Source of the DNA: Planctomycetota bacterium
GTDB lineage: Bacteria > Planctomycetota > MHYJ01 > WSZJ01
Direction of reading: 5' to 3'
DNA length: 64,000 nucleotides
Assembly (NCBI GenBank): GCA_038060895.1
Contig: JBBTCT010000020.1
Coordinates: 1 to 64,000, forward strand
Shown: positions 26,624 through 63,999 of the stretch, piece after piece
Layout: each line of letters starts with the position of its first letter
Position numbering within the stretch: the first letter of the stretch is position 1
Position numbers and translations under genes: made by a program
Notes under the pieces: model-generated
Seen by the model: only the letters and a program-made list of their open reading frames with translations
What the model was told of the DNA's origin: nothing
Database searches by the model: none

Positions 26624-29600
26624 TCAGGTTGCCGTACCCAACTTCACCACGCACCCCACCCTGATCCCAAAGTCGAACACCACCAGCTTCGCCCCCAACG
26701 CGGTCCGGTCGCTTGCGCGCATTTCGATCGCGGGCCGAGCCCACGTTCCTCCCCGGAACTGCCGCCGCCCGGGCCAGTCGCTGCCGGCGTCGTCGAGGCA
26801 GGCGTCGCGGGTGTTGCCGGCAAGGCCGCGGACACCGTAGGGGGATTCGTCGTCGGGGAAGGCGGAGACGGGGACGGGGCGCGGGCCACCCTCGTGCGAA
26901 CGCTCGCCGTTGCACCAGCGCGGGTCGAGGTGGCGGCCCCACGGGTAGAAGCGCCGGTCGGGGCCGCGGGCGGCTTTCTCCCACTGGAAGCTGGTGGGCA
27001 GCGTGACGAGGACGCCGTCGCGCGAGCGCTTCCAGTTCGCGAAGGCCACCGCGTCTTCCCAGGAGACGCCGGCGACGGGCCAGTCGTCCTGCCAGTCGAT
27101 GGGGACGTTGGGGAGGCGGCGGGCGCCGGCGATGGACCAGGGGGGGCCGGACCAGAGCGGCGGGGCGGCGGGGGCTTCTCGCGGGGCGCGGCGGGTCGCT
27201 TCTTCTTTCGTCAGCGCGTTCAGGAACTCCGCGTACTCGCGGCAGGTCACCGGCCGCTTCGCCAGGAAGAACACCGGGAGGTCGCGCGTCTCCGCGAGTC
27301 CGGCGTAAGGATTCTCCCGGTCGCCCTGGAACCCGAACGTTCCCTCGGCGACCGGGGCGAAGCCTTCCGGGATTTCGGCGGGCTTGAAGAGCGTGACGTC
27401 CTGATCGACATGGCCGCCGCGGGGGACGAAGACGGGGACGCGGGCCGGGGCACGGCCCTCGCGGGCGACGATGAGCAGGTACGAACCCATCGGGAACGCG
27501 CGCCGGGGGATCGGCGTGCGGCCCAGGTGGAGGCCCGGGCCCTGCGGTCGGAAGGCGGAGTCCTTTTCGTACAGCGCGTCGAGCGCGGCCGCGGGAACGG
27601 CGGGGCCTTCGGGACCGGACGGTGTCACCGGGATGAGGCGGCGGCCGATTTCCTCGTGGCGGAAGAGCCACACGTCGCTTCCCGGGAGATCGTTCGCGGC
27701 GCAGGTGCCGCCGTGGACGCGCAGGCGGACGGCGGCGCGCGGCTCCAGCACGGGCAGACCCTCGGCTCCCGGAGTGCCCGCGATCGACCGCCCCGAGTAC
27801 GCGTGCCACTTCCCCGCCGCCAGTTCTTCCGGAAACACCGTCCGGCCTCTCGTCAGGCAGTCGCACGAAAACGCCGACGTCCGCACCTCGAGCGTACCCT
27901 CGCCGCGCAATTGCGCCTGCAGCCGCCCGTCGTTGTGCTCCTCCGCGACGCGCCGGTGCACCAGCGCCGCCGCTTCTTCGCCGGCGTCCTCGGCCCCGAG
28001 GAAACTCTCCCAGGCGAGGTCGGCCATGATCGCGCGCGCGTCGGCGTGCTCACGGTCGTGCTCGAGCGCGCGCGTCAGTGCCGTCACGGCGTCCGCGTGC
28101 GCCGTCGCCGCCTGCCGTGAGAGCTCCTTCGCACGGTCCTCCGCTTCCCAGAGCGCTGTCTTGTCCGCCAGGGGAGCGGTCGCCGCTTCCAGCCGCTTCG
28201 CCTCCGCCGTCGCCGTGGCCGCCTCCGCGCGCAGTTTCATCCGCCGGGCGAGCGCGCCCCGAACCAGGTCCACCGCCGCGTCCGCTTCCGCCCGCTGCCG
28301 CTCGCGACGCTTGACTCCTTCGAGGAACAGCTGCAACTCGTCGTGGAGTTCGCGGGCGGTCTGGAAGCGATCCTCTGGTTTTCGCGCGAGGGCGCGGAGG
28401 CAGATGGCGTCGAGTTCCGGCGGGACGGGGTCGCCGGCGTGGGTGGTGGAAGAGGGAGGGGAGGGATCCGGAAGGCGCGTTTCGCGGGCCTTTGAGGGCG
28501 GGGTGATGCTGCCGTCGCGGACCCGGGTGATGACCTCTTCGACGCTGCCTCCCTCGAAGGGCGGCCGCAGGGCGAGGATCTCGTAGAGGATAGCGCCGAG
28601 GGAGTAGATGTCGCTCCGGGGGTCGATGTCATCGACGCGTCCCTCGGCCTGCTCGGGGCTCATGTAGGCCGGCGTACCGATGATGTCGCCCTCGAAGGTC
28701 AGGTTCGTGGCGCGAGAGAGCGCGATGACTTCGGAGTCGGAGCTGCGTTCCCGCGCGGTGGTGCCGGCGACGCGCACCGTGGTCGCGGGCCTCTTGCCGT
28801 CCGCGTTCGCAGGTCTGGGCGCGGCCACCCCCCGCGGTGCAGGCTCCCCGGCGCTCACGGCTTCCCCCGATACCGCCGTCTTCAGCTCCTTCGCCAGCCC
28901 CCAGTCCACCACCAGCGTTTCGCCGTAATCGCCGATCATGATGTTCGAAGGCTTGAGGTCGCGGTGAATCACGCCGCGGTCGTGCGCAAATGCCATCCCG
29001 AGGCAGACGTCCTGGAAGACGCGCAACAGCCGTCCGCGCGACCACATCCGCCGCGCGCCGGCCTGTCCCTCCGCCAGCGACCTCAGCACCTGGTCGAGAT
29101 CCCGGCCGCGCACACGCTTCATCGCCAGGAAAACCTGCCCGTGCCCGTCCGCCGCCACCATCGTCCCGAAGTCGTAGACGGGGATGATCGCCGGGTGCTC
29201 GAGCTTCGCCGCCAGCCGCGCTTCCCGGGCGAATCGCTCCTCCGTGTCCCCTGGCTGCTGGTCGTGCAGGATCTTGACGGCGACTTCGCGGCGAAGCGCC
29301 GCATCCCAGGCTTCGACGACCCGTCCCAGTCCTCCGCGGCCGAGCTCGGACATGAGCTGGTACCGGTCCGGCGCCGCGGGGGGCGGTCCCTTTCCCGCGC
29401 CTTCGGCGGCCCGCGCCCGCGACGGTGTCACGCGCAGCCACGCGTCCGCCTCCGCCTTCACGATCGCCGCTTGCTCCGGAGACAGGGTGCCCTTGGAGAC
29501 GAGGAACTCACCCAGCGGTTTCTTCTCGCCCTGCATCCAGGGTCCCGCCGCGTCCACGAGCTTGTCCTGCGTGAGGAAATCCCGCCGGAGGGCGAGGAGG

Positions 29601-29629
29601 GCGAAGAGCAGATCGGAGTCAGGGACCAT
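26624..29629 (-). CDS. Ser/Thr kinase-PEGA-FGE/sulfatase-modifying-factor (CLec) protein, paralog 1
   Basis: LGRGGLG, HRDLKPSN, DWG, GTPAYMSPE; PVTCREYAEFLN, PVAGVSWEDA, LPTSFQWEKAARG, SPYGVRGLAGN, RGGTW. Confidence 0.92.
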   Translation of the reverse strand: MVPDSDLLFALLALRRDFLTQDKLVDAAGPWMQGEKKPLGEFLVSKGTLSPEQAAIVKAEADAWLRVTPSRARAAEGAGKGPPPAAPDRYQLMSELGRGGLGRVVEAWDAALRREVAVKILHDQQPGDTEERFAREARLAAKLEHPAIIPVYDFGTMVAADGHGQVFLAMKRVRGRDLDQVLRSLAEGQAGARRMWSRGRLLRVFQDVCLGMAFAHDRGVIHRDLKPSNIMIGDYGETLVVDWGLAKELKTAVSGEAVSAGEPAPRGVAAPRPANADGKRPATTVRVAGTTARERSSDSEVIALSRATNLTFEGDIIGTPAYMSPEQAEGRVDDIDPRSDIYSLGAILYEILALRPPFEGGSVEEVITRVRDGSITPPSKARETRLPDPSPPSSTTHAGDPVPPELDAICLRALARKPEDRFQTARELHDELQLFLEGVKRRERQRAEADAAVDLVRGALARRMKLRAEAATATAEAKRLEAATAPLADKTALWEAEDRAKELSRQAATAHADAVTALTRALEHDREHADARAIMADLAWESFLGAEDAGEEAAALVHRRVAEEHNDGRLQAQLRGEGTLEVRTSAFSCDCLTRGRTVFPEELAAGKWHAYSGRSIAGTPGAEGLPVLEPRAAVRLRVHGGTCAANDLPGSDVWLFRHEEIGRRLIPVTPSGPEGPAVPAAALDALYEKDSAFRPQGPGLHLGRTPIPRRAFPMGSYLLIVAREGRAPARVPVFVPRGGHVDQDVTLFKPAEIPEGFAPVAEGTFGFQGDRENPYAGLAETRDLPVFFLAKRPVTCREYAEFLNALTKEEATRRAPREAPAAPPLWSGPPWSIAGARRLPNVPIDWQDDWPVAGVSWEDAVAFANWKRSRDGVLVTLPTSFQWEKAARGPDRRFYPWGRHLDPRWCNGERSHEGGPRPVPVSAFPDDESPYGVRGLAGNTRDACLDDAGSDWPGRRQFRGGTWARPAIEMRASDRTALGAKLVVFDFGIRVGCVVKLGTAT

Positions 29630-29700
29630 GGGAAGGAGGCATTTTGTCGCAACTGGAGGCGTCGGCTAACAGTTTCCGGATCGCCGGGAGTCGTGCACAG

Positions 29701-29737: not shown

Positions 29738-29766
29738 GTTCTTCGATTTCCCGGCCAGGCTGCTCC

Positions 29767-36737: not shown

Positions 36738-39668
36738 TCACCGGCCCCCGAGCCGGACGGCCACCGCGGTCCGGACACCGAATCCGTTTCCCGGCCCGTT
36801 GATGACGCCGCCCTGGTGAAGCGTCGTGCGGCCGATCACGAAGGGGCGGTTCCACGAGCTGCCGCGGCGGCACCGCCACTTTCGGTACCCCTCGCCCGCG
36901 TCGCTCAGGCAGTAGCATGTGGCGTTTCCGCTGAGGCCCCGGATCCCCCAGGGGGACTCGTCCCACGGGAAGGAATCGACCGGCGCGGGGGCGGAAGCGT
37001 CCGGCTTCGACTGGTTCGAGCAGGACAGGGCGGCGAACCCGTGGTCCCCCCAGACGTAGCGCCGGAGCCCTGCGCCGCGCGCCGCGCGCTCCCAGAGGTA
37101 GCGCGAGGGAGTCGTGAAGAGCCACCCGGTTTTCCCGGAACGCCCGCGGACGAAGTGCTGCGCGTCCGTCCACGAGAGCCCCAGCACGGGCCATTCTTCT
37201 TCCCAATCCGCTCCGCAGTTCTCCAGCCGCGCCGCACGCGCCTGCTCCGAGTCCGGCGCCGCAGCCATCCATGCCGCAGTCGGCACCACCCAGCCCGAGG
37301 CGCTTCGCGGCCAGAACCACCCCGCCCGCTCCGCCGCGCGCGGCGCATGGTTCCGTGCTTCGCCCGGATCGCGCTTTTCGAGATCGTTCAGCCAGGCGGC
37401 GTACTCGCGGCACGTCACAGGGAAATGCGCGAGAAACGCATCCTCGACATCGGCCATGCGGCGCGGGGGGTCGAGCTGGCCGGTTTCGCTGATGCTCTGG
37501 AATCGTCCGCCGAGGACCGGAATGTGGCCGGGGGGGATTTCCTCGGGCGAGAAGAGAGTGGCTTCGACAACGCAATCTTCGCCGCGGCGGATTTCAAACG
37601 GCACGCGCTGGGGAAAACGGTCGGGCGCGACGACGATGAGGAGCCCCTCGCCACGCGGCCACGGCCGGCGTGCGACGGGCGTCCTCCCGAGGTACCACCC
37701 GGGGCCGCGAGGGCGGAACGGCGAACGACCGAAGAGCGCTTCCAGCACCGCCGTGGGAACCGGGGGACCGGGCGGCGCATTCTTCGGGGTCTCCGGTAGC
37801 AGGCGCCTGTGCTCCGACACGTAATGGAAGGCCCACACTTCCGCGCCGGCCACCTCCTGAGGCCGGCACGACGCCACGTGAACCCGCAGCCGCTTCGGCG
37901 CATCGCGCTCCAGCTCCGGAAGGCAATCCGTGTCGACGCCATCCAGCCGCCGGCCGGACCAGGGGTGATACCCCTCGACGGAAAGCTCGTGCGGGGCGAC
38001 GTCTCTCCCCTCGACGAGACAGCGGCATGGGTACGCCCGCGTCCGAAGCGAAATTGCCCCTTCGTCGCGCAGCCGCTCCGTGAACGCTCCGTCGTTGAAC
38101 GCCACGACGCGCCGGCGGGCAAGAATCTCGCCACGCCAGTCGTCGTGTTGCTCCGCGTCGAGGAAGCGCTCCCAGTGGACTTCCGCTTTGAGTACGCGCG
38201 CTTCGGCGTGGTCGGGAAGCAGCGACAGCGCTCCGTCGAACGCGTCGTCCGCGTCGGCCAGCGCCTGCACGCTCTCCAGTTCCAGCTGATTCGCGCGGTC
38301 CTCCAGCCCGAACGCCTCCGCGTGCGCCTCGACCGGCGCGCCCGGCGGCACCCGCCGCTCTTCGTCGTCCGCCTGCTTCTTCGCCGCCGCCGCGTCCGCC
38401 GACAGAGACTTCCACCGCGCCAGCGAGGCCTTGCCCTCGTTCATGCGCTCCGCCGCGAGCCGCTCGCGACGGTCGCGCTCCGTGGTGCCTTCCAGCCAGG
38501 CGTCCAGGTCGATCTGAAGCGCCCGCGCCGACGGATGCCGGTCCGTGGACTGGTACGCCATCGCCTTCAGGCAGATCGCCTCCAGGTCCGGCGGGCACGC
38601 GTTGAACTTCGACGGCGGGTCCAGCTTCCCATTGACCACCCGCGACACGACTTCCACCGCCGTCCCGCCATCGTGCGGCGGCCGACCGGTCAGGACTTCG
38701 TAGAGCGTCGCGCCGAGCGCGTAGACGTCGCTTCGCTCGTCGATTGCCGTCAGCCATCCCATCGCCTGCTCCGGCGGCATATACGCCGGCGTCCCGAGGA
38801 TGTCCCCTTCGAGCGTGAGGTTCGCGGTCTCCTCCTGCTTCGCGATCCGCCCAGGGCGAGCGGCTGCCGTGGAAGCGCGCCGGAGCTGGCTCGGGCGGTC
38901 CTCCTCGCCGAGAAGCCGCGCGAGCCCCCAGTCCACGACCAGCACTTCGCCGAAATCGCCCAGCATGATGTTCGCGGGCTTGAGATCCCGGTGCACCACT
39001 CCCTGCGAATGCGCGTACGCCACCGCCCGGCACGCGTCGCGGACGGCCTCCACGAGCTTCCGAAGCGGCCGGCCTTCCGCAATCGCCCACCCCAGGTCGC
39101 GCCCTACGATCTTCTTCATGCACAGGAACGATTCCTTCGTCGAAGGAAGCACCCCGACTTCGTGCACGGTGACGATGTTCGGGTGGTCGAAGCGCCCCGT
39201 GATGCGGGCTTCCCAGCGGAAACGCTCGAGCAGGTCCCCCGGGGCGTCTTCCAGCATGAGTTTCAGCGCGACCTTGCGACCAAGCTCGCGGTCCATTGCC
39301 TCGACCACGCGCCCGACCCCGCCGCGCCCGAGTTCCGCGCCGAGCTCGTACTTCTGGTCGTGCGCCTCCGCAGGCGCTTCCGGCGCCGCGGGTCGCGGAC
39401 GCCGGAGCGCGACCAGCGTCTCCCGCAGCGCCGGCGACATCGGCGCGACCGTGCTCGTCTGCGCGTGCTCCCACTCCGCGACCAGCGCCCCCAGCTCCGC
39501 CAGCTGCGCCTCCGTCAGGTACCGCGCTTCCACCAGCAGCTTCCCCACGTCCATCGAGGGCGTCGCCATCCACATCGCCGTCGCTTCCATAAGCCGTTCG
39601 CGGGAGAGCCAGCCGCGCTGGAACGCGAGCAGGGCGAGCAGCAGAGGGCCGGGCACGGGGGCGGACAT
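36738..39668 (-). CDS. Ser/Thr kinase-PEGA-FGE/CLec protein, paralog 2
   Basis: LGRGGVG, HRDLKPAN, DWG, GTPAYMPPE; PVTCREY, WERAARG, SPWGIRGLSGN, RGSSW. Confidence 0.92.
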   Translation of the reverse strand: MSAPVPGPLLLALLAFQRGWLSRERLMEATAMWMATPSMDVGKLLVEARYLTEAQLAELGALVAEWEHAQTSTVAPMSPALRETLVALRRPRPAAPEAPAEAHDQKYELGAELGRGGVGRVVEAMDRELGRKVALKLMLEDAPGDLLERFRWEARITGRFDHPNIVTVHEVGVLPSTKESFLCMKKIVGRDLGWAIAEGRPLRKLVEAVRDACRAVAYAHSQGVVHRDLKPANIMLGDFGEVLVVDWGLARLLGEEDRPSQLRRASTAAARPGRIAKQEETANLTLEGDILGTPAYMPPEQAMGWLTAIDERSDVYALGATLYEVLTGRPPHDGGTAVEVVSRVVNGKLDPPSKFNACPPDLEAICLKAMAYQSTDRHPSARALQIDLDAWLEGTTERDRRERLAAERMNEGKASLARWKSLSADAAAAKKQADDEERRVPPGAPVEAHAEAFGLEDRANQLELESVQALADADDAFDGALSLLPDHAEARVLKAEVHWERFLDAEQHDDWRGEILARRRVVAFNDGAFTERLRDEGAISLRTRAYPCRCLVEGRDVAPHELSVEGYHPWSGRRLDGVDTDCLPELERDAPKRLRVHVASCRPQEVAGAEVWAFHYVSEHRRLLPETPKNAPPGPPVPTAVLEALFGRSPFRPRGPGWYLGRTPVARRPWPRGEGLLIVVAPDRFPQRVPFEIRRGEDCVVEATLFSPEEIPPGHIPVLGGRFQSISETGQLDPPRRMADVEDAFLAHFPVTCREYAAWLNDLEKRDPGEARNHAPRAAERAGWFWPRSASGWVVPTAAWMAAAPDSEQARAARLENCGADWEEEWPVLGLSWTDAQHFVRGRSGKTGWLFTTPSRYLWERAARGAGLRRYVWGDHGFAALSCSNQSKPDASAPAPVDSFPWDESPWGIRGLSGNATCYCLSDAGEGYRKWRCRRGSSWNRPFVIGRTTLHQGGVINGPGNGFGVRTAVAVRLGGR

Positions 39669-39744: not shown

Positions 39745-40923
39745 TCATGGCACTTGCCGTTTCCTCACGCCGAATCCCTTGGGACCCGCAAGCGCATCCA
39801 CGCCCTCGTCCCGGATCGGCCCCCCCTCCGTCCGAGCGAACAAGTCCGCCAACGACGTCGCATCGCCGACGTCCGTCGCCTCCTGCCCCCTGGAACGAAG
39901 CCACTCCGTCGCGACGACGCGGGGGAGCAGAGGGAAACGAACATGCGCGACGCAGCGCCCGGAACGGAGGAACGCAGGGTCGATCTGCTCGACTTCCTCG
40001 TTGAAAGTAATGAGGAAGAGATCTTCTCGCCCCTGTCCGAGCAGCCCATCCGTCATGTTGAGCAGCCGGCCGAGGACGTCCGATCCACTTTCGCCATGCC
40101 GGAACAGGAGCGAAGCCGAGTCTTCGAGGATGAAGAGCCTGCGCCGGGCCGGCGCTCTTTCGACACGCTCGTGCGCAAGCCCGTCGAGCACATCGTCGAT
40201 GTCCTCGAAGCCCGCGGACCTTTCCAGCGGATCGCTGGCCAGATCAAAGTAGTACTCCGGATGTTTCGCAAACTTCTCCGGGTCGGCGAGCACGGTCGGC
40301 ACGTACTGCGTCCGCCACGAACGCATCAGGGCACGCAGCGCAAAGGTCTTCCCCGTCCCGGTTGGCCCGTGCCAGACGATGAGCTGTCCGCGTTTCCGCG
40401 GATCGGGAAGCGCGAGAAGTGCGTCCACAGCGGCTCGGGTAGCGTCGGCGTAGTTTCCGCGGATCGCCTCCCATTCCGGGCAGCGCACAAACTGCGACAC
40501 GTTTCGAGTGCCGTACTCCTCCAGGACACAGAAGTCCGCCCAGACGCCGTCGGCGCGCTCCTCATTTTCTTTCGGCGACCTGGGCCCGAGGAGTCGAAGG
40601 ACCTCGTCGATCAGCGCCTGCACATCGTTCGAAGCGCTCAATCCCTCGATGTGCGCTCTTCCCCGGGCAAATTGGATTTCGACGACGTCTCCCCCGCGCT
40701 TTAGCGAAATCCTCCAGGTCTTCTCGCCGACGGAGAGGTCGAACCACTCGAACCCCTTGAGCAGGTCGACGACATCCTGCCAGGTCGCTGCAGGGTCGAA
40801 GCGGATGTCGCGGGTCGCGACGGATCGAGGCAGGAATTCTCCGAGTGACTCGCCGTACGTTCTGTGGCGAAAGTGTTCCTGCCACATCGCTGACGACAGG
40901 CTGAGACGGACATGGGGAGGCAT
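39745..40923 (-). CDS. AAA+ ATPase (BCS1/DUF5925-like)
   Basis: Walker A HGPTGTGKT, Walker B LFILED, LLNMTDGLLGQG, ITFN...IDPAFLRSGR. Confidence 0.85.
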   Translation of the reverse strand: MPPHVRLSLSSAMWQEHFRHRTYGESLGEFLPRSVATRDIRFDPAATWQDVVDLLKGFEWFDLSVGEKTWRISLKRGGDVVEIQFARGRAHIEGLSASNDVQALIDEVLRLLGPRSPKENEERADGVWADFCVLEEYGTRNVSQFVRCPEWEAIRGNYADATRAAVDALLALPDPRKRGQLIVWHGPTGTGKTFALRALMRSWRTQYVPTVLADPEKFAKHPEYYFDLASDPLERSAGFEDIDDVLDGLAHERVERAPARRRLFILEDSASLLFRHGESGSDVLGRLLNMTDGLLGQGREDLFLITFNEEVEQIDPAFLRSGRCVAHVRFPLLPRVVATEWLRSRGQEATDVGDATSLADLFARTEGGPIRDEGVDALAGPKGFGVRKRQVP

Positions 40924-41970: not shown

Positions 41971-42225
41971 GAGGACGCCCTCTTCGCTGAACTCCCGCCT
42001 GCGCAAGCGGGTCAGTGAAAAGCAGGCCGCCGAGGTTGCCGGGTAGGATGAGGCGGGCGGCTGCGTTCGAAGGGCGCGAGAACCTGCAGGAAAATTCCGG
42101 GTTTGCCTCACTTCAAGGTGCCCGCAGGTGGTCATCCAAATATTAGCCTATGTTTGTATTATGTCAAGTTATATTTAGTAATATGTTGCATTCTTCCTTG
42201 ACTCGAACTGTGACTTCCAACGGGC

Positions 42226-42324
42226 GCTTCCCCACGTCCATCCTCGGCGTCGCCATCCACATCGCCGTGGCTTCCATCAGCAGCTCGCCCGACAACCAGC
42301 CGCGCTGGAACGCGAATCGTGGCG
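42226..42324 (-). pseudogene. Duplicated fragment of the 5' end of kinase paralog 2
   Basis: 42226-42315 aligns ungapped with 39539-39628, and 42311-42324 (CGCGAATCGTGGCG) matches 39673-39686. Confidence 0.8.
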
Positions 42325-42360
42325 GTGATCCACCGCTTCGAGGAAGTACATTGGAAGCGC

Positions 42361-45893: not shown

Positions 45894-48800
45894 TCAGGAA
45901 GAAAGCGTCGGCGCCACAGCCGAAGAAAGCCGTATCCCGATCGCGCCGTTCACCTCCCGCGTGACCCCGCCGCTCCGGTACATCGCGCGCGCCAGCATGC
46001 CGCTTCGCGCCCAGCTCCCGCCGCGCGTGATGCGGCGGCCGGGAAGCATGTCGTTGGGCTCGTTGAGGCAGCGGTCGCTGGAATTGCCGCCGAGGCCGCG
46101 GACGCCGTAGGGGGACTCGTCGGTCGGGTAGGTAGACACGGGGTATGGGCGGCCGCCCGTGCGATGCGACTGCTGGGAGCTCGCGAACGTCGCTTCCCAG
46201 GTTGAGCCCCACGGGTAGACGCGTCCGTCGGGGCCGCGGACGGATTTCTCCCACTGCTTTTCCGTGGGGAGATGAAAGAGGCGGCCGGCGCGAAGCGAGG
46301 ACCACTTTGAATACACGACGCCGTCCTCCCACGAAATGCCGGTGACGGGCCAGTCTTCCTCCCAGTCGATGGTGGTGTTCGTGAGCTTGGCGACCTGGGC
46401 GCGAACCGCTTCCGGCGCGGCCTTGAGCCAATCGGCGGTCGGCACGGCGTAGCCCTTGGCGGCGTCGAGGGGCCAGTAGAACCCGCTCTTGTCGGCGGCG
46501 CGCGGGACGCGTCGGGCCGCTTCTTCAGGCGCCGTGCGCCGGACGTCATTGAGGTAGTCGGCGTACTCGCGGCAGGTGACGGGGTTGCGGGCGATCAAGA
46601 AGTCGGGAAGCGTCAGGTGCTCGAGGGGGTTGGGGGCGAGGCCGACCTTGTCGCCGCTGTACTTGAATTCCCCGGCAGCGACGGGGAGGAAGCCGGCGGG
46701 GATCTCTTCGGGGGCCCAGAGGGTGAGGTCGAGTTCGATGTCGTGCTGGCGGACGACGACGATGGGGACACGCTGGGGAGCGCGGCCTTCGGCGACGACG
46801 ATGAGGAGCCAGGAGCCCATCGGCCACGGCTGCCTCGGGATCGGGGTGCGTCCGAGGTAGACGCCGCCGCCGCGGGGGCGGAAGGGCGAGCTGCCGAAGA
46901 GCGCGTCGAGAACAGCGCGCGGCACCTGTGTGGCGCCACCGTGAGGGGTCGTGGGTATGAGCAGGCGGTCGAGTTCCTCGTAGCGGAACGCCCAGACTTG
47001 CGCGCCGTTGAGCGGGGCGGGCTTGCAGGAAGCGGAGTGCAGACGCAGGTGGTGGGCCTCGTGAGGTTCGAGCTCGCGGAGGCCGAGGCCGTCGGGCTGG
47101 TCGAGCGAGCGGCCGCTCCAGGGGTGGAGGCCGAGGACGCCGAGTTCGTCGCTGCGGACAAGCCGCCCGTGCGAGAGGCAGCGGCACGGGAAGACGCGCG
47201 TGCGGATCGAAAGCGCTCCGTCGCCACGGAGGCGCGCGTCAAGAACACCGTCATTGAACTGCTCCGCCGTCTGCCGGTTGAGCTGCATGTCTCGTTCGTC
47301 GCCAGCGGATTCGGCCTCCAGGAAGCGCTCCCAGTACATCTCGGCTTTGACTTCGCGGGCCTCGTGGTGGCCGGGGACGTTGGAAAGCGCGGACGCCAGC
47401 GCGGCATCGGCCTCCGTGAACGCCGTGATCGAGTCGCGGTCGAGGGTGCGCGCCCGCTCTTCCATGTCCCACAGCGGTTTCCGGCCCGAAGGACCCTCGT
47501 ACTCGGGAATGCTCTCGTGGAGCCGCATGACCTCGGCGTTCGCGTCGGCCGCTTCTTTCGTGAGCGCGCGCCACCTCGCGACCGCGTCGCGCGCTTTGCC
47601 GACCTGCCCGGCGGCGAGTCCTTCGCGCCGCTCCTTCTCCTTCGTACCTTCGAGGTACGACTCCACGTCCGCCGCGAGCTCGCCCGCCGTTGCAAACCGG
47701 TCCTCCTGCCGGCGCGCCATCGCCTTGAGACAGATCGCCTCGAGTTCCGGCGGGACGTGGGCGCGGGCGGACGGAGGCATGAGCGGGCTGGCGACAACTT
47801 TCTTCACGACCTCCTCCGCCGTCTTCCCCTCATAAGGCGGCCGCCCCACAAGAATCTCGTAGAGGATCGCACCGAGCGAATACACGTCGCTCCTCTCATC
47901 CAGCGACTCCCGGTCTCCCCGCGCCTGCTCCGGCGACATGTAAGCGGGCGTCCCGAGGATCTCTCCCGTCTCCGTCACCGGCCGCGAAGCATCCGCCGCC
48001 GTCATTTTCGCGGCCGACTTCTGCCCCATCCCCATCCCTATCCCCATCCCTCCCGATCCCCCGGCCCGTTCCTCCCCCATCCCCGGCCGTTCGCCCCTGT
48101 CTTTCGCCAACCCCCAATCACAAACCAGCACCTCTCCGAATTCCCCGAGCATCACATTCGCTGGCTTCAGATCCCGGTGAATCACCCCCTTCGAATGCGC
48201 AAACGCCACCGCACGGCACACATCCCGGAACGCTTCCACCAGCCGCCGCAACGTCCACCGCCCGACCGTCGCGCGTCCCTCCTCGTCGTCCTTCGCCCGT
48301 TCGCGAATCACATGATGCATGTCGCGCCCGTAAATGCGCTTCATGCAGAAGTAAATCTCCTTCGACCCCGGCAACGCGCCCACCTCGTGCACCGGGACGA
48401 TGTTCGGGTGCTCCAGCTTTCCCGTGATGCGCGCTTCCCAGCGGAAGCGCTCCAGCGCATCTCCCGGCGCGTTCTCCAGCATGAGTTTCAGTGCAACCGT
48501 CCGGCCAATTTCCGCGTCCGTCGCCTCGATGACGCGCGCGATCCCGCCGCGGCCGATTTCAGGGCCGAGCTGGAAGCGTTCGCCGGGGCCGAGCGGTTCT
48601 GGTGAGAGGTGCGGGTTGGAGCCGCCGGCCTTCGGCATGACGATCGTGTCCATCGACTCGTTGGCCGACGGCTGGTAACCAGCCGGGAGCCCGCGCCCCG
48701 TCGTGCGCGCCATGTGCGCCGAGACGAGCCCCGCAAGGGCTTCGCGCTGTACTTCCGTGATGAAGCGCTTCTCGATCAGCACGTCGCCGAGGTCGCGCTG

Positions 48801-48908
48801 GGGTTTTTCGGCCCAGGTCGCGAGGGCCGCGACCAGCTGCTCCTTGGAGATATAGTTGAGCTGGAGGGCGAGGACACCCGGGAGCAGGCGGGCTTCGCGG
48901 TCGTTCAT
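45894..48908 (-). CDS. Ser/Thr kinase-PEGA-FGE/CLec protein, paralog 3
   Basis: IGRGGIA, HRDLKPAN, DWG, GTPAYMSPE; PVTCREY, LPTEKQWEKSVRG, SPYGVRGLGGN, RGGSW. Confidence 0.92.
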   Translation of the reverse strand: MNDREARLLPGVLALQLNYISKEQLVAALATWAEKPQRDLGDVLIEKRFITEVQREALAGLVSAHMARTTGRGLPAGYQPSANESMDTIVMPKAGGSNPHLSPEPLGPGERFQLGPEIGRGGIARVIEATDAEIGRTVALKLMLENAPGDALERFRWEARITGKLEHPNIVPVHEVGALPGSKEIYFCMKRIYGRDMHHVIRERAKDDEEGRATVGRWTLRRLVEAFRDVCRAVAFAHSKGVIHRDLKPANVMLGEFGEVLVCDWGLAKDRGERPGMGEERAGGSGGMGIGMGMGQKSAAKMTAADASRPVTETGEILGTPAYMSPEQARGDRESLDERSDVYSLGAILYEILVGRPPYEGKTAEEVVKKVVASPLMPPSARAHVPPELEAICLKAMARRQEDRFATAGELAADVESYLEGTKEKERREGLAAGQVGKARDAVARWRALTKEAADANAEVMRLHESIPEYEGPSGRKPLWDMEERARTLDRDSITAFTEADAALASALSNVPGHHEAREVKAEMYWERFLEAESAGDERDMQLNRQTAEQFNDGVLDARLRGDGALSIRTRVFPCRCLSHGRLVRSDELGVLGLHPWSGRSLDQPDGLGLRELEPHEAHHLRLHSASCKPAPLNGAQVWAFRYEELDRLLIPTTPHGGATQVPRAVLDALFGSSPFRPRGGGVYLGRTPIPRQPWPMGSWLLIVVAEGRAPQRVPIVVVRQHDIELDLTLWAPEEIPAGFLPVAAGEFKYSGDKVGLAPNPLEHLTLPDFLIARNPVTCREYADYLNDVRRTAPEEAARRVPRAADKSGFYWPLDAAKGYAVPTADWLKAAPEAVRAQVAKLTNTTIDWEEDWPVTGISWEDGVVYSKWSSLRAGRLFHLPTEKQWEKSVRGPDGRVYPWGSTWEATFASSQQSHRTGGRPYPVSTYPTDESPYGVRGLGGNSSDRCLNEPNDMLPGRRITRGGSWARSGMLARAMYRSGGVTREVNGAIGIRLSSAVAPTLSS

Positions 48909-59400: not shown

Positions 59401-62400
59401 TCCCCTGGCCGTCGAGCTTGAGCTCCGTCTTCGCCGTGAAGGCGCCTCCTTTTTCGGCCACGACCGAGGGGCCCTTGGCACGCATGGCCACCGTCACATC
59501 CCGTTTCGCGCCGTCCACGCTGACGGAAGCGACAGGCGCCGCCGTCCAGTCGAGGTCCTTTTCGGCGGTGGAGCGCGCGGCAACCTTGACCTTCGTCTCG
59601 GTGCCATTCAGGACGATCGACGCTTCGGCTTCGGCCGCGGACCAGTTGGTGAGGAGGACGACGGCGGACGTCTTCTCGCCTTCGACCGCGCTGTCCGGGA
59701 ATCGAACTTCAGCGAAGACGGAGGCGCGCACTTTCACCGTGGCCTCGGCGGTTGCGATCGCGTTCCCGCCATCGATCGACCACGCCTGGAGCTCGATGTC
59801 TTCGCGCCTGCCGGGAGCCTTGAACCGGAACGTCGCGATCCCGTCGGCTCCCGCTTCCGCAGAAACCCAGACGTACGGCACGGGTTGAGCAGAGGGAGAG
59901 TGGCCTGCGCCCGACGACCCTCCGCCGCGGGCGACGAGGTTCCTCTTGCCGCCCAGGCGGCCGCCGTAGCGCCCGCCGCCGCCACCGCCGCCGGCCACCT
60001 CCTCGGCATCCTCGTTGTGGTCCTTCTCGGACTGCTTCATCTTGTCGAGGTTGTTCTCGAGCATGACGCGCCGGCTCTGGCCGCGATCCAGCTGTTCCAG
60101 CCTCGCGAGCGCGTCAAGCAGTTGCGGGTCCACCTGCTGCGTCTGCCACGTGAACGCCGTCGCCACGGAGGAGTCCGCCGCGAAATACGCCCCGGGACGC
60201 ATCGGGTTGAAAGCGCCAGTGTCGATTCCCGTCGTGATTTCCGCCGACGACAGCAGCCAGACCTCGCTGCCCGGCTTCGCCGTCACCTTCACCACGATCT
60301 CCTCGCCCGGCTTCACTTCCTTCTTCTCGGGCTCGATCTTCACTTCAGGCGCCTTCAGGGCAAAATCTCGCACGTCCGCGTGGAACTTCCCGCCCTGCAT
60401 CATCATCACCGTCACGCTGAAGTCGCGCGTCGTGGACGGCGGCGCGTTCAGCGTCACGGCGTTTTTTCCCTTCTCGAGCGTCACCGCCAGCACCTGCTCG
60501 ACCTTCTCCCCTTCGATCGTCACGAACGCCAGTCCCTTTTCGAGGCGGGACAGCACCGTCAGTTCCACCGGCTTCCCGGGCTCAAACGTGTCCGCGCCGG
60601 AAAGAAGCCGCAGCTTGCGCTCTTCCTTGTCGTCCATCACCGCCACCGCCGTCTGGAGCCTCGTCGGCATCCCGTCGGCGTCCTTCGTCGTCACCGTGAT
60701 CGTGTGCACGCCCGCGTCGTTGGCGCTCCACGCGAACTTCGCCTTGCCCTCCTTGTCGGTCGTGGCGTCGCCCTGGGCGACGGGGAAGCGCTGTCCGGCT
60801 TCGTTCGTGCGGACGACGGTCCAGCGGAACGCCGCGCTGAACGGCGTGTCGTCGGCTCTCTTCGCCGTGAAGGCGATCGTCTTGGGCTCGCCGGCGACGA
60901 CCGGCTCGGTCACGCGCGACTCGTCGTCGAACGTGATCGCCGGCGTGCGGGGAAGCACCGGCACACGCAGGACGTCCGCGGCCCCTTCCGTGCTCAGCTG
61001 TACGACCGCGAGGCCGTCGCGGAAAAAGCGGTCCGTGTCGCGGATCTGAATCGCGAGCGTCCCGTCGGCGGCCGTCATGGCGTCGCGCCACTCCAGATCC
61101 CCCGGCGCGAGAATCCGCACCCAGCGTCCGCCCAGCGGGCGGTTCCACTCGTCCCGCAGGATCGCCGTGATGTCCACGTTGTCTCCTACGAACTTCGGCG
61201 CATCGTCCGAGATGTATTCGAAATGCGGGAAGCGCCGCGCCGCGGCCGCGATCGAGACTTCCACCGCGCCGAGAAGCTTTTCCAGCGGCAGCGCCTTTTC
61301 AACGACCGACACCGTCACATTTGAGTGCAGCCCTTTCGGCATCGTGAACGCCATCGCCGCCGTCCCGAACTTCGAGAGCGCGACGGTCGCTTCGTGGAAC
61401 ACGATCCCCTGCCCGCTCACCGCGCGCAGGATGTAGTTCTTGTCCTTCGGCAGCAGGTACGCGCCGCCGTCGGCGTCGCGGACGACCAGCCGCACCTTCA
61501 CCTCGTCCCCGTCGCCGTACAACGACCGGTCCGTCAGGATCAGCACCCGCGGCTCGCGCTTCGGCGCGATCGGAAGCGCGCCCATTGCCATGTCCCGGAA
61601 CGCAAGGTGCCCGTTCGACTCGGCCAGAATCGAGAGGCTTGACGGCCGCATGTCGTCCTTCCACGTCTTCACGTGCTTCCCGTCCGCCGCCATCCGGACG
61701 TTGGCGTTCTCGACGCGTTCGCCCGTCCGCTGGTTCTGCACGACCACCGTCGCGCCGCTCCTGCCCGCGCGTGCGATCATCGCCAGGTCCGACACGATCA
61801 CGATCGTCTTCGCTTCCTGCGTGCCGATCGAGGCGGACACGACGTACGCGCCCGGGTCCTTCTTCGGGAGTTCGACGTCGAGTTTCATCTCCTTGAAGCG
61901 CCTGTAGTCCTTCACCGGCACTTCCCATTCCTTGTCCGGGGCGATCACGGCAACTTCGAGCGAATCGAGCCCGGTCGTCGCGGCGCGCTTCTCGAAGTAG
62001 TCCTTGAGATCGAGTGTCCAGAAGCGGAATTTCACGGTCTCGACGTTGCGGACCGTGAGCTTCACCGCCGGCGTCTCGGCGCCCGTGAAGACTTTCTCGC
62101 TCGAGAGCGCGAGCGACTTGTTCTGCAGCGTCTGCAGGAACTGCTGCGCCTGCCCCTGGAAGTTTCCGCCGACCTTCGGCAGTTCCTTCATCGCCGTCTC
62201 GAAGTCGTCGAGCTCGCCCGCGTACGCCTTCGCGGCCTCAAACCGCGCCTGGTGCCCTTCGTTGTATCCCTGGAACTTCGTCGCGACCCGCATCCACGTC
62301 TCGACCGCTTCCTTCCATTTCTTTTCTTCCGCAAACGTCTGCCCCACGCGGAACGCCATCGCCGCCGCGCGGCCGTCCGTCGGGTGAAGCGCCGCGAATT

Positions 62401-63625
62401 CTTCCGCCGCCGCGCGCGCCGCCGCCCAGTCCTTGCGCACGAACGCCCTGCCCGCCGCCTCGAACCTCACGTCCGCAATCGCCTGCCGCACCTCGGGCCA
62501 GCGCGGAGAATCGGGGAAGCGCTTCAGGAAGTCCTCGAACGTCGCGATCGCCTTCGCGTCGTCCATGTCCGCGCGCCAGAGCCACGCCACGCGCAGCAGC
62601 GCCTCGGGAGCGCGTTCGTCCTTTGCGTTGGCGTCTGCGAATGCCGTCAACTCCTTGCGCGCGTCGTCGCGAAGTTCTTCATATTGCGCCAGGGCGATCC
62701 CGGCCAGGTACCCCGCCTTCGGGCCCCAATCGCTCTTCGCGTAGTCCTTTGCGCAGCGCCGCAGAAGCGGCAGCGCCCGGCGCAGTTCCTCGATCGATCC
62801 CGTCTGCCCGGCCTCGTTCACATGCAGCAGCGCCGCCAGCCAGAGAGCTTCCGATGCCCGCGCCGACGCCGCGAACTCCGTCGGGATCCTCAACCACGCC
62901 GCCTTCGCGTCGAACGGCCGGCCGGTGTCGCGGAGGGCCGTGGCCTGCGCGAAGAGCGCCTCGTCGAGCTTTGCGGCCTTCGGGAACTTCTCGAAGAACT
63001 CCTTGCACGCCTTGAGAAGCTGCGCCCGGTCCATGTTCCCTTTCAGCTGGCACGTGATGACGTCGATCCGCACTCCCTCTTCGTCTGCGCCGAGCGCTTC
63101 CAGCTCCAGCGCCTTCGCCAGGAGATTCCGCGCCGCCTGGAAATTCGCGACGAACGTCGGGTCCTTCGCTTCCCTGGGATTCAGGAACTCGCGCCCGGCC
63201 TCGACGTAGATCATCGCGATCTTCCTGCGCCGCTCCGGCGCCGTTACGGCCGCGACTTGCGCGTCGTAAATCTGTCCCGCCAGCGCGAATTCTTTCCTGG
63301 CCGCCAGCACGTCTCCCTTCTTGTACAGCGCCTTCATCCGGAACCCGCTAGCCGGGTAGTCCTTCACGAGGCGGTCGAGCGAAGCGATCGCTTCGTCGTT
63401 CTTCTTCGCGTTCTGCTGCGCCGTCGCGATGAGCAGCAGGATCTCGTCCTGACCGGACTTCGCTTCGCCGAGCGCCTGCGTCAGCAGCTGTTCCGCTTTC
63501 GCGTAATCGCGATCCTTGAGCGCGGTTTCGCCCGCGGACCGCGCATCGGACGGCGGCGGGTCGGCGTTGACGAAGCAGATGGCGGCAAGCAGAACGGCGC
63601 AGAGAGCGAAGCGGCGCTGGCGCAT
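56426..63625 (-). CDS. Giant secreted TPR + alpha-2-macroglobulin-like (MG domain) protein, ~2400 aa
   Basis: AGGAG RBS + signal peptide; BamD-like TPRs; IVSDLAMIAR, LTDRSLYGDGDEV, LSKFGTA, KPGEEIVVKV, GADGIATFRFKAP, VRFPDSAVEGE; helical TED-like region. Confidence 0.85.
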   Translation of the reverse strand: MRQRRFALCAVLLAAICFVNADPPPSDARSAGETALKDRDYAKAEQLLTQALGEAKSGQDEILLLIATAQQNAKKNDEAIASLDRLVKDYPASGFRMKALYKKGDVLAARKEFALAGQIYDAQVAAVTAPERRRKIAMIYVEAGREFLNPREAKDPTFVANFQAARNLLAKALELEALGADEEGVRIDVITCQLKGNMDRAQLLKACKEFFEKFPKAAKLDEALFAQATALRDTGRPFDAKAAWLRIPTEFAASARASEALWLAALLHVNEAGQTGSIEELRRALPLLRRCAKDYAKSDWGPKAGYLAGIALAQYEELRDDARKELTAFADANAKDERAPEALLRVAWLWRADMDDAKAIATFEDFLKRFPDSPRWPEVRQAIADVRFEAAGRAFVRKDWAAARAAAEEFAALHPTDGRAAAMAFRVGQTFAEEKKWKEAVETWMRVATKFQGYNEGHQARFEAAKAYAGELDDFETAMKELPKVGGNFQGQAQQFLQTLQNKSLALSSEKVFTGAETPAVKLTVRNVETVKFRFWTLDLKDYFEKRAATTGLDSLEVAVIAPDKEWEVPVKDYRRFKEMKLDVELPKKDPGAYVVSASIGTQEAKTIVIVSDLAMIARAGRSGATVVVQNQRTGERVENANVRMAADGKHVKTWKDDMRPSSLSILAESNGHLAFRDMAMGALPIAPKREPRVLILTDRSLYGDGDEVKVRLVVRDADGGAYLLPKDKNYILRAVSGQGIVFHEATVALSKFGTAAMAFTMPKGLHSNVTVSVVEKALPLEKLLGAVEVSIAAAARRFPHFEYISDDAPKFVGDNVDITAILRDEWNRPLGGRWVRILAPGDLEWRDAMTAADGTLAIQIRDTDRFFRDGLAVVQLSTEGAADVLRVPVLPRTPAITFDDESRVTEPVVAGEPKTIAFTAKRADDTPFSAAFRWTVVRTNEAGQRFPVAQGDATTDKEGKAKFAWSANDAGVHTITVTTKDADGMPTRLQTAVAVMDDKEERKLRLLSGADTFEPGKPVELTVLSRLEKGLAFVTIEGEKVEQVLAVTLEKGKNAVTLNAPPSTTRDFSVTVMMMQGGKFHADVRDFALKAPEVKIEPEKKEVKPGEEIVVKVTAKPGSEVWLLSSAEITTGIDTGAFNPMRPGAYFAADSSVATAFTWQTQQVDPQLLDALARLEQLDRGQSRRVMLENNLDKMKQSEKDHNEDAEEVAGGGGGGGRYGGRLGGKRNLVARGGGSSGAGHSPSAQPVPYVWVSAEAGADGIATFRFKAPGRREDIELQAWSIDGGNAIATAEATVKVRASVFAEVRFPDSAVEGEKTSAVVLLTNWSAAEAEASIVLNGTETKVKVAARSTAEKDLDWTAAPVASVSVDGAKRDVTVAMRAKGPSVVAEKGGAFTAKTELKLDGQGKTRIFVATSPAALLEALAEGRDDLTRASDVATRLIARLARHRFEKTDVTKLAVMEFAALRAQGLGDAAVNDAAWPVLLYLAAAEAKAAEFDIEPDPALLKQRFAQATSDDTKALILFALSRGKHAEYGFLFRLWRGVDTLSPRALACVALAMKAAEKTDEAKSALEKLAKAAKEDHWEATSVAQADSANTTYATTALAALAMAEIDPAHALLPKSRAWLLARRPKTAFERAALALAMQTTPDKGGVTEVKVDGQSVKGFGELTATDGVVDPTGTGTFYAMASRETGVVPEPAVKVAVKRTAEWPHSIVEGKVATPVAATVKEPVENPSMSKVAAGSWFRVKYELTVTGPTTQYSIVELPRNTGLQFGRADLRVLLAPQAEAERKVEVTFLAYSDAPAAYPEIEVLAPGAAFRDGWSWTHGERTTAGAILFEKKKWKECRDMLLPLFEKGTLLDAVAASAARMLGYSAVELGENETVVKYFEVLKEKAPGEVVPFDKIRAIAKAYAAVNEHERSMQVSSGACDAYFLQEANLAGALEDLGRMKDSVAWMKTLLSDYPDSSLNREMLFGFGQRLYSKAKSHKTTAEKNDKALTREELLVESAAAFEHVLAWFPAHEENDRAMLSLCSAYLEAGKFDLADGAARLAAARFIKSRFIDTFDYTQAFALFAQKKFPEALTLCDKLETFDYGAKANPGPGVIRTQAVLMKAQIFHAKGEMDKAVENYKKVKAKSADAARSIAFLEREAISVKDVTLAPLAKAAELELEYAGVAEAHVRAYKVDLTMLALRRKNLVDASTVEVAGIKPVFEKTFKLDHPNARRREKQTFTLDLKDPGAYLVGVKAGDFFASGIILRSNLSMAVQEESDGNVRVNISDVASGGFAESVKVTIFGTDDQRIASDKTDLRGIWETAGVRGLAIVVAEKDGHVAMHRGASVIGQIEDARRKADMPAAAKKLSEQQKELLDQELKSANDEMEDNYNKNLRNRQQGVEVERMKK

Positions 63626-63831
63626 GGCGAGGTCTCCTGTGTACACCGCCCCCGGAGTGCCCGGGGGCTGTGAATAAGACGTCTTTGGCGGGCGATTGGT
63701 TCGGAAGAGTTTCAGAACCCTGAACAAGGGCCGAACAGGATACACACCCGCACGAACGGATACACCGTCGGCACGAGATCCCCGGGCAAGAGATGCTGGA
63801 TCAAGGAGGAAAAGCAATTCTCAAGCCGCGG

Positions 63832-63999
63832 TCAGACCCCGGTCGGGAGGCACAGCCGGAATCCGTAATTGCGGTAACAGGTCGTCGGGACGGTCCCCTG
63901 TCGCTCCTCGCATTTCGCCCACGTCGGCGAGTGATACCACGCACCGCCACGGATGCACCGGTAGTGACGGTAGGGCTTTTCGGGGGCGTTCCAGCACCA
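63832..63999 (-). CDS. 3' end of a fourth FGE/CLec-domain gene (runs off the window)
   Basis: WCWNAPEKPYRHYRCIRGGAWYHSPTWAKCEERQGTVPTTCYRNYGFRLCLPTGV*; RGGxW and GFR motifs. Confidence 0.8.
   Translation of the reverse strand, partial: WCWNAPEKPYRHYRCIRGGAWYHSPTWAKCEERQGTVPTTCYRNYGFRLCLPTGV

Follow-up and report, generated by a model that had tools for sequence, protein, structure and literature searches.

Planctomycete kinase-FGE paralogs with divergent C-terminal tips that appear mostly inherited and stable between species

DGRs are already known to target fusions of a kinase to an FGE-type lectin domain, chiefly in cyanobacteria. In the cyanobacterial work (PMC7517822), STK-CLec DGR proteins carry an N-terminal kinase and a C-terminal CLec domain that varies in its last part; they are mostly cytosolic and have many paralogs per genome, only some of which are tied to a DGR, with membership of a CLec cluster corresponding to over 30% pairwise identity. 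The same work proposes that they let the kinase recognise a ligand or substrate, and reports that cyanobacterial DGRs can act on remote targets. A limited full-text literature search found no publication on the kinase-FGE family of Planctomycetota.

Here we analyse a window of 64,000 nucleotides (the whole stretch of DNA under study) from a groundwater planctomycete, G000, whose assembly amounts to 5.4 Mb and is 86.5% complete. The window contains three full kinase-FGE genes and the 3' end of a fourth. By tip we mean the 24 residues between the RGGxW and G[FIV]R motifs.

26624..29629, minus strand: paralog 1 (P0001), 1001 aa; stop-free ORF with Pfam support
about 28355-29362, minus strand: P0001 kinase (Pkinase domain)
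26663-27346, minus strand: P0001 FGE/CLec domain (Pfam FGE-sulfatase)
26669..26740, minus strand: P0001 tip, residues 964-987, ARPAIEMRASDRTALGAKLVVFDF
36738..39668, minus strand: paralog 2 (P0002), 976 aa, architecture as in P0001; stop-free ORF with Pfam support
38628-39350, minus strand: P0002 kinase
36900-37529, minus strand: P0002 FGE domain
36780..36851, minus strand: P0002 tip, residues 940-963, NRPFVIGRTTLHQGGVINGPGNGF
45894..48908, minus strand: paralog 3 (P0003), 1004 aa, architecture as in P0001; stop-free ORF with Pfam support
47706-48572, minus strand: P0003 kinase
45927-46691, minus strand: P0003 FGE domain
45939..46010, minus strand: P0003 tip, residues 967-990, ARSGMLARAMYRSGGVTREVNGAI
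63832..64000, minus strand: fourth kinase-FGE gene, 3' end only; the whole gene is C20:63832-66837, 1001 aa
63865-63936, minus strand: tip of the fourth gene, YHSPTWAKCEERQGTVPTTCYRNY

The full proteins are built in the same order: a conserved N-terminal module, a Ser/Thr kinase, a helical linker, a beta-sandwich middle domain and the FGE/CLec domain. In each of them Pfam recognises Pkinase (115-131 bits) and FGE-sulfatase (50-94 bits, cut-off 23.3), P0002 having the weakest FGE score at 50.5 bits; the tail of the fourth gene, 55 aa on its own, gives no Pfam match. The motifs VA[VL]K, HRDLKP[AS]N, DWGL and GTPAYM[SP]PE are present in every full protein, with DWG in place of DFG. Given a PF00069 score above cut-off, the catalytic Lys, the HRD loop, DxG and APE, these are Hanks-type Ser/Thr kinases, and apparently active ones. 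In the comparison with contigs of public runs, the numerous 'other letters' and joints at 28.6-29.0 kb and 38.7-39.3 kb stem from cross-mapping of other kinase genes. No TM-like segment is found in P0001-P0003, the highest 19-residue Kyte-Doolittle means (1.14-1.67) falling within predicted beta strands. For the N-terminal module of about 60 aa, a Pfam search up to E 1 returned nothing meaningful, and its only NCBIfam match, in P0003, is a sub-threshold one to an MshE-related c-di-GMP motif (26.6 bits against 38). The middle domain, which matches no Pfam family, holds four invariant Cys/His of the composition Cys3His.

The family extends well beyond the window. G000 contains 31 FGE-domain matches in 30 ORFs, 25 of them with an HRD kinase motif, six of these on the contig of the window; 21 of the FGE genes are of the DWG type without a TM segment. 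Overall, P0001-P0003 are only 42-46% identical to one another, and it is at the tip that the family diverges most between paralogs. Among 20 full-length G000 paralogs, mean pairwise column identity in the tip is 0.17, compared with 0.41 overall, a value as low being reached by just 0.4% of 842 windows. Across 83 homologs the tip is the lowest of 422 24-residue windows (0.213 against 0.463). Its length is constant and free of indels throughout, and the scaffold R/R/G positions are kept, both R in 73-74 of the 83 homologs and G in 57. The preliminary description of the window, made from its letters, had reported three full minus-strand paralogs and a fourth tail, proteins lacking a TM helix, four tip strings with their scaffold motifs, and tips that 'differ completely'; these observations are confirmed, every tip being present as written, while its expanded family was, if anything, understated.

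Between species, the picture is one of conservation. One-to-one orthologs of the window genes occur in four to five congeners, and the adjacency of P0002 and P0003 is preserved in five. P0003 is 90, 84, 84, 82 and 66% identical to its orthologs in G002, G003, G004, G001 and G007, respectively, the runner-up match being at 51%; P0002 is 89, 69, 68 and 67% identical to those in G002, G003, G004 and G001; P0001 is 72% identical to those in G001, G003 and G004, and its G002 copy lies in two pieces (84% and 78%). The P0001 tip is more similar to its orthologs (0.83-0.96) than the whole protein is (0.72-0.84), with a dN/dS of 0.07-0.24. The P0003 tip behaves alike, at 0.96-1.00 in four orthologs against 0.81-0.90 for the whole protein; its identity to the distant G007 ortholog is 0.50. 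With G007 left out, dN/dS for these two tips is 0.00-0.35 over eight pairs and at most 0.24 in seven, and in most pairs they are better kept than kinase, linker or scaffold. They are nearly identical between species whose dS in the same codons is 0.3-1.2. A DGR target would show a variable region that differs between close relatives within unchanged flanks, a pattern absent from the P0001 and P0003 tips. In public runs, assembled contigs, one of them from another study, span the tail of paralog 1 without a single differing letter, and contigs of four runs, a contig type (Logan) that drops rare variants, list no variant in the three tails.

P0002 departs from this pattern. Its tip is 0.92 identical to the G002 ortholog and 0.25-0.33 identical to those of G001, G003 and G004, with a dN/dS of 0.8-1.2 over 24 codons and five sequences; from these three orthologs the scaffold diverges too (0.66-0.69 identity overall). 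Such values would fit relaxed or diversifying selection. Over 13 clear ortholog pairs between G000 and G003, median identity is 0.83 in the tip and 0.77 in the scaffold; the tip lies above the scaffold in eight pairs, does not in five, and falls far below it in two (0.42 against 0.71 and 0.58 against 0.76).

A complete DGR, ordered target-Avd-RT-TR, is carried by the congener G006 and acts on a member of the same family.

L027:3006-6281: kinase-FGE gene, target of the DGR
L027:6134-6213: variable region (VR) of the target
L027:7785-7864: template repeat (TR)

The target is 49% identical to P0001, 45% to P0003 and 59% to the G000 protein encoded at C40:23805-26837. Its VR and TR differ at 10 of 80 positions, nine of them TR adenines in AAC codons, and the Avd scores 86.1 bits on NF033474. 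The VR is the RGGxW...RTG part of the tip and reaches only to about tip position 20, so that in this family member the tip segment is a DGR variable region. Elsewhere in G006, the tail on C134 may be a second target, being 80% identical to the TR over 66 nt with several mismatches at non-adenines; the tail on C176, with a TR match of only 73%, was rejected as a target. RTs related to that of G006 occur in eight of 56 genomes of the class. A caspase-Tudor gene adjoins the target and is the only gene of the locus with a G000 counterpart (C1:433636-434697), beside which G000 has neither a kinase-FGE gene nor a cassette.

We now propose, with a probability of about 0.8, that the family in G000 is a germline-encoded set of cytoplasmic sensor kinases in which every paralog has a fixed ligand-binding tip of its own, and that it operates without a DGR in this genome. 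The genome would encode about 21 cytoplasmic Hanks-type Ser/Thr kinases, four of them in the window, each ending in a putative ligand-binding site. As the tips appear to be germline-encoded, specific to each paralog and mostly under purifying selection, each kinase may recognise its own fixed ligand, either an activator or a substrate to phosphorylate, and binding at the tip would thereby control or direct the kinase. Diversity would arise by duplication, divergence and turnover of genes, and not through a DGR in G000. The tips thus seem, on comparative grounds, to be inherited, mostly stable between species and mostly not actively hypermutated in G000. The preliminary description was right that the tip is the segment DGRs mutagenise in FGE-type targets, as the G006 cassette illustrates; its idea of ongoing hypervariation in the window genes finds no support, given the one-to-one orthologs, the P0001 and P0003 tips whose identity exceeds that of the whole protein, the higher median identity of tips over the 13 ortholog pairs and the lack of DGR parts in the assembly. 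It had named two observations that would speak against itself: conserved one-to-one orthologs, which exist, and tips no more divergent than other loops, which is not the case between paralogs. On the whole, its interpretation is partly supported.

The repertoire could also be immune-like, the germline-encoded tip recognising an invader molecule and the kinase triggering defence. The family is large and turns over between species (for 15 of 28 G000 FGE genes, G003 offers no clear reciprocal-best partner), some tips evolve fast, and the G006 target adjoins the caspase-Tudor gene; two reports propose FGE-type domains as invader sensors in conflict systems, planctomycete systems included (PMC7159879, PMC10907252). 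However, no defence-type partner of the window genes is kept across species; P0002 has an AAA ATPase and a YhcG nuclease as neighbours, and the P0002-P0003 spacing of the congeners lacks both. Purifying selection acts on most tips, and this speaks for stable ligands that are probably endogenous or environmental. Stable tips would be more readily explained by fixed ligands than by an arms race, with the fast P0002 tip and the high gene turnover as exceptions, and we regard an immune role as unlikely, if worth keeping in mind.

The tips, variable within a fixed length and an anchoring scaffold, may be a fossil record of DGR activity: cassettes like that of G006 would have made new ones repeatedly, after which the cassette was lost and the genes were duplicated and held by purifying selection. 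Among 23 G000 tips aligned to the TR of G006, variability peaks in the TR-Asn columns (0.10, with scaffold columns at 0.40). Codons of the NNC type make up 72 of 138 there (0.52); the scaffold columns have 0.48 and the genes as a whole 0.42 (p 0.016 for the latter comparison), and K/E/Q/M/W account for 16 of 138 against a background of 17.4% (p 0.07). Tip positions past the extent of the G006 VR are equally variable. We consider such an origin doubtful. Were it true, a germline sensor repertoire would have been seeded by a somatic-type diversifier, and the genus would hold one scaffold in a 'live' state, under a DGR, and a 'frozen' one, in the paralogs.

It is improbable that the tip is an unconstrained, drifting surface loop devoid of specificity, in a domain of structural or dimerisation use only. 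This would suit the P0002 tip, with its dN/dS near 1 and the weakest FGE domain, and the low overall identity of the paralogs. It sits poorly with the low dN/dS of the P0001 and P0003 tips, with the ortholog pairs in which the tip surpasses the scaffold, with the fixed tip length and kept R/R/G scaffold, and with a G006 DGR that picks exactly this segment. In a model of the C-terminal 445 aa of P0003 (residues 560-1004; mean pLDDT 95.7, pTM 0.94), moreover, the tip has a pLDDT of 95-96.

This model and Pfam agree on a C-terminal CLec/FGE-type fold, as expected of DGR targets. With E values from 1e-13 to 1e-16, Foldseek relates the model to CalU17, ToxD and FGE/SUMF proteins. Enzymes (FGE, EgtB and OvsA) head the list of fold matches, and public names of relatives read 'bifunctional serine/threonine-protein kinase/formylglycine-generating enzyme family protein' or 'SUMF1/EgtB/PvdO family nonheme iron enzyme'. 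It is nevertheless highly improbable that the proteins are kinases joined to a formylglycine-generating or EgtB-like enzyme whose active site is the C-terminal segment. An active site should be the best conserved part, and no window of the domain is less conserved than the tip. The copper-binding catalytic cysteine pair of FGE, which we take to lie in the C-terminal segment matching the tip, has no equivalent in the family tips: no Cys is conserved there (the fullest Cys column counts eight of 83 homologs and four of 23 G000 tips), and the P0002 and P0003 tips are Cys-free. The NCBIfam matches place the proteins far below membership of the EgtB/OvoA-type sulfoxide synthases (EgtB, TIGR03440: 34.3 and 20.5 bits, cut-off 360; SenA: 29 and 23.7 bits, cut-off 420), and the non-enzymatic TvpA, PvdO and PorK, which share the fold, match the model as well. 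For the Planctomycetota DWG kinase-FGE family, the label 'bifunctional kinase/formylglycine-generating enzyme' is probably misleading.

We searched the G000 assembly for a DGR of its own. Just two genes match RVT_1; both were rejected as DGR RTs, one being retron-type (NF038233, 220.8 bits) and the other group-II-like and next to an integrase. The G006 RT as query found nothing in G000 (best E 0.27), and no Avd passes the cut-off (best 26.6 bits against 80). Compared by blastn with G000, the last 243 nt of the 30 FGE genes gave 350 matches, namely 31 to themselves, 265 to other FGE genes and 54 elsewhere, none of the 54 showing the adenine-only mismatches of a template repeat. With the G006 TR as query, the sole matches are paralog tails on C40 and C29 (~71% identity); none lies in the window genes. 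Thus neither the DGR RT nor the adenine-mismatched template repeat for which the preliminary description had suggested a search is found in the assembly, although its incompleteness means that a DGR could sit in the missing part. That a DGR elsewhere in the genome now diversifies the window genes as remote targets, in the cyanobacterial manner, is scarcely credible, since the genuine VR of G006, the related RTs in the class and that missing part are outweighed by the lack of any DGR component or TR match to these genes, by P0001 and P0003 tips that barely change across species and by a P0001 tail unaltered in contigs of a second study.

Altogether, the genus provides a clean comparative set: each genome has about 20 paralogs that differ in their tips, most tips are stable between species, which implies defined, retrievable ligands, and one member in a sister species has its tip under DGR mutagenesis. 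Such a set lets one compare gene duplication with DGRs as possible alternative means of diversifying sensors on a single scaffold, and look for the tip positions on which specificity depends.

Among solved structures, the best sequence matches are ToxD (PDB 7spq, E 8.7e-15) and CalU17 (6vqp, E 4.9e-11), and the tip aligns residue for residue with the G.LAR...R.G segment of ToxD; unlike the window proteins, these are stand-alone proteins of ~320 aa from toxoflavin and calicheamicin biosynthetic clusters, with no sign of a shared function. FGE/SUMF1 (PDB 1y1e, 6s07) shares PF03781 and the fold (E about 1e-14, TM 0.65 on target), whereas the window proteins are kinase-fused and cytoplasmic, with a C-terminal segment that is the least conserved and has no conserved cysteine pair. 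Treponema denticola TvpA (PDB 2y3c), which we take to be a DGR-diversified lipoprotein without a kinase, has the fold of the P0003 model (Foldseek E 1.1e-10, TM 0.61 on target) at 17% sequence identity, and its surface is variable at the C-terminus. The G006 target belongs to the same family and has the same architecture as the window genes, but has Avd, RT and TR downstream of it and bears adenine-specific VR/TR mismatches. The cyanobacterial STK-CLec proteins, compared by architecture only, resemble the G000 family in domain layout, cytosolic type and number of paralogs; the G000 family differs in its phylum and in having no DGR in the assembly, and adds a helical linker, a Cys/His beta-sandwich middle domain and the DWG motif.

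Kinase-FGE genes of the window all lie on its minus strand:

26624-29629, minus: P1 (P0001), clean translation, 1001 residues
36738-39668, minus: P2 (P0002), clean translation, 976 residues
45894-48908, minus: P3 (P0003), clean translation, 1004 residues
63832-63999, minus: open frame, 3' end of a fourth kinase-FGE gene of 1001 aa, continuing to position 66837 of the contig (C20)

Translation thus bears out the three full paralogs and the fourth FGE tail of the preliminary description, and its four tip strings and scaffold motifs were recovered letter for letter. Each full protein carries a Pkinase and a C-terminal FGE-sulfatase domain, both well over the Pfam cut-off, with 42-46% pairwise identity among the three. 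All three retain the kinase motifs VAxK, HRDLKPxN, DWG and TPxYMxPE, and a hydrophobicity scan gave no TM-like segment in any of them, as previously described. Together these features make cytoplasmic, probably active kinases a fair reading, activity being judged from the motifs.

Outside these domains, a conserved N-terminal module (LL.ALLALQ...LG..L; 48735-48866, P3 residues 15-58, with counterparts in P1 and P2) has no Pfam match; its sole match is a sub-threshold NCBIfam model, the MshE-related c-di-GMP-binding motif (26.6 bits, cut-off 38). The middle beta-sandwich domain matches no Pfam family either. Its residues C575, C577, H624 and C628 (P3 numbering; 47025-47186, residues 575-628) are invariant in 83 of 83 homologues and may form a putative Cys3His metal site. 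The window also encodes two Ser/Thr kinases of other architectures, kinase-TPR and kinase-WD40 (10695-13817 and 19653-23312), and, immediately downstream of kinase-FGE gene four, a 2463-aa ORF (56426-63817) with TPR repeats and alpha-2-macroglobulin-type domains (A2M_BRD, MG2, A2M).

The expanded family proposed from three genes and a tail is real, its size having been understated. Across the assembly (5.4 Mb, 47 contigs, 86.5% complete) there are 31 FGE-sulfatase matches in 30 ORFs, 25 of which bear the HRD kinase motif; six family genes lie on contig C20, whose positions 1-64000 are the window, and Pkinase matches total 132. In 21 of the 25, DWG replaces the canonical DFG and no hydrophobic segment occurs. 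In the remaining four this motif is DFG, DLG or absent, and a TM-like segment separates kinase from FGE, which would suit a receptor-type topology.

Between paralogs, the tip, 24 residues near the C-terminus between the scaffold motifs RGGxW and G[FIV]R, is more divergent than chance. Over 20 aligned full-length paralogs of this genome, mean pairwise column identity was 0.17 in the gap-free tip window vs 0.41 in all windows, with only 0.4% of 842 windows as low. Among 83 homologues from many MAGs, it scored below every other of the 422 windows along the C-terminal 445 residues (0.213 vs a mean of 0.463), in agreement with the original remark that residues between the scaffold motifs differ completely; two arginine positions are retained by 73-74 of the 83 and one glycine by 57.

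Between species, each window gene has one clear orthologue in congeners. For P3, identities are 90, 84, 84, 82 and 66% in G002, G003, G004, G001 and G007 (next-best match 51%). P1 orthologues are 72% identical in G001, G003 and G004, and G002 holds two contig-end pieces at 84% and 78%; none was found in G007 at E 1e-200. For P2 the values are 89, 69, 68 and 67% in G002, G003, G004 and G001, and the gene at the corresponding position in G007 is 54% identical. Five congeners conserve the P2-P3 neighbourhood, with 0.2-2.2 kb between the two genes vs 6.2 kb in the window, where the extra stretch (39745-45893) has a lower G+C of 0.641, encodes an AAA ATPase, a DUF1016/YhcG PDDEXK nuclease, a FAD-binding protein and an LCM-type methyltransferase, and may be an inserted island.

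In most orthologue pairs the P1 and P3 tips have changed less than the kinase, the linker or the FGE scaffold. Tip identity is 0.83-0.96 for P1 (whole protein 0.72-0.84) and 0.96-1.00 in four P3 orthologues (whole protein 0.81-0.90), falling to 0.50 in the distant G007. The P2 tip is the exception: 0.92 identical in the closest species and 0.25-0.33 in three others. At codon level, tip dN/dS is 0.07-0.24 for P1 and 0.8-1.2 for P2, the latter from 24 codons only. With single clear orthologues and two tips that outconserve their proteins, the window genes are not hypervariable in the sense of a diversity-generating retroelement (DGR).

Genome-wide, we compared the family with that of G003 (94% complete, 26 FGE matches): 13 of 28 FGE genes had a clear reciprocal-best partner. 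Median identity in these pairs was 0.83 in the tip vs 0.77 in the rest of the C-terminal 300 residues; tip identity lay above that of the scaffold in eight pairs and not above it in five. The other 15, three tandem genes on contig C14 among them, had no such partner, which suggests rapid gain and loss within the family.

The preliminary description also called for a search for a DGR reverse transcriptase (RT) and a template differing at adenines; neither was found in this assembly, 86.5% complete. Only two RVT_1 genes are present. One (352 aa) is retron-type (NF038233, 220.8 bits; Ec67-type, 226.9 bits) and adjoins a DNA polymerase III alpha-like gene (locus C17:31648-35229); the other (469 aa) is group-II-intron-like and lies beside a tyrosine-integrase-like ORF (locus C26:89337-92987). 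Permissive blastn with the last 243 nt of the 30 FGE genes returned 350 matches (31 self, 265 other FGE tails, 54 elsewhere), and none of the 54 short matches outside FGE genes showed an adenine-only mismatch pattern. No Avd exceeded the cut-off of 80 in this genome (best 26.6 bits, away from any RT). Contigs from four public runs cover the window region, two possibly from the source, the other two from a separate study; those spanning the tails held no differing letter, and no variant is listed in any tail, although contigs cannot reveal rare variants.

A scan of relatives for RVT_1 pointed to congener G006, where a kinase-FGE family gene is followed 0.6 kb downstream by an RT. L027:3006-7864 (L027 being G006:C6:36000-48000) forms a complete DGR:

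L027:3006-6281: target, kinase-FGE (Pkinase 117 bits, FGE-sulfatase 76 bits)
L027:6331-6681: Avd (NF033474 86.1 bits, cut-off 80; bAvd 57.1 bits)
L027:6681-7784: RT (RVT_1 65.7 bits)
L027:7785-7864: template repeat (TR), 80 nt, matching the target variable region (VR) at 6134-6213

Of the 10 mismatches that separate TR from VR, 9 fall on template adenines within AAC codons. In the protein, the VR corresponds to the RGGxW...R..RTG stretch of the tip. For a family member in a congener, the early view of this segment as a DGR-mutagenised surface stands. Among six genomes of the genus (ours and five of seven congeners), G006 alone has an Avd over cut-off, and neither its RT nor its Avd has a counterpart in our genome. 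There the G006 target has its nearest relative outside the window, in C40:23805-26837 (59% identity), whose tip is 0.88 identical to that of the G003 orthologue. Within the class, 8 of 56 genomes carry related RTs, three of the loci having CLec-type VR/TR pairs. The pairs of these three loci (in G008, G046 and G035) span 80-123 nt, are 80-86% identical and, where sequences are shown, have A-rich AAC codons in the TR and a VR ending in the CLec-type G[FV]R motif; their contigs end before the targets' N-terminal domains. Upstream of the G006 target lies a caspase (EACC1-associated type) fused to Tudor-knot/chromo-like domains (L027:862-1968), whose orthologue in our genome (C1:433636-434697, 73% identity) adjoins no kinase-FGE gene or DGR.

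We modelled the C-terminal 445 residues of P3 from an alignment of 83 homologues (mean pLDDT 95.7, tip 95-96; pTM 0.94). Foldseek matched the FGE-like part to CalU17, ToxD, human and bacterial FGE and pFGE (E 1e-13 to 6e-16), to the DGR variable protein TvpA (E 1e-10), and also to EgtB, OvsA, PvdO and PorK. ToxD is the closest solved relative by sequence, its C-terminal segment aligning with the tip. No cysteine is conserved in the tip among the aligned homologues; since we take the catalytic cysteine pair of FGE to sit in the corresponding segment, a catalytic FGE role is unlikely. For EgtB or SenA identity, model scores were far below cut-off.

We propose that the lectin-fold tip of each cytoplasmic kinase would bind one defined partner, either a ligand acting as the kinase's switch or a substrate recruited by the tip; passages of PMC7517822 propose both options for cyanobacterial kinase-CLec proteins. 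A functional, specific binding surface is indicated because most tips are under purifying selection, because paralog tips diverge completely at fixed length, and because a sister-species DGR targets the same segment. Diversity in our genome is probably germline, arising as genes duplicate, diverge and turn over. An immune-like role is possible: sections of PMC7159879 and PMC10907252 propose one for FGE-type domains in conflict systems, planctomycete ones included, and the G006 DGR target adjoins the caspase-Tudor gene. However, no defence partner accompanies the window genes across species, and the tips are mostly stable.

Close relatives in databases are Planctomycetota or Planctomycetia MAG proteins labelled 'protein kinase', 'SUMF1/EgtB/PvdO family nonheme iron enzyme' or 'bifunctional serine/threonine-protein kinase/formylglycine-generating enzyme family protein', so the architecture is already in routine annotation. 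A full-text literature search, supplements aside, found no paper on this Planctomycetota family. Comparable proteins appear in portions of earlier work: cyanobacterial kinase-CLec proteins, both DGR targets and non-diversified paralogs (PMC7517822), Pkn1/PknD-named targets with the VR inside the CLec domain in MAG surveys (PMC11661182), one listed kinase-containing target type (PMC5758913) and a kinase plus FGE-sulfatase organisation in a bacterial kinome atlas (bioRxiv 10.1101/2025.01.12.632604). The window genes thus extend a known type, and what they add is a single genus in which frozen paralog tips contrast with a presumably live DGR on the same scaffold.
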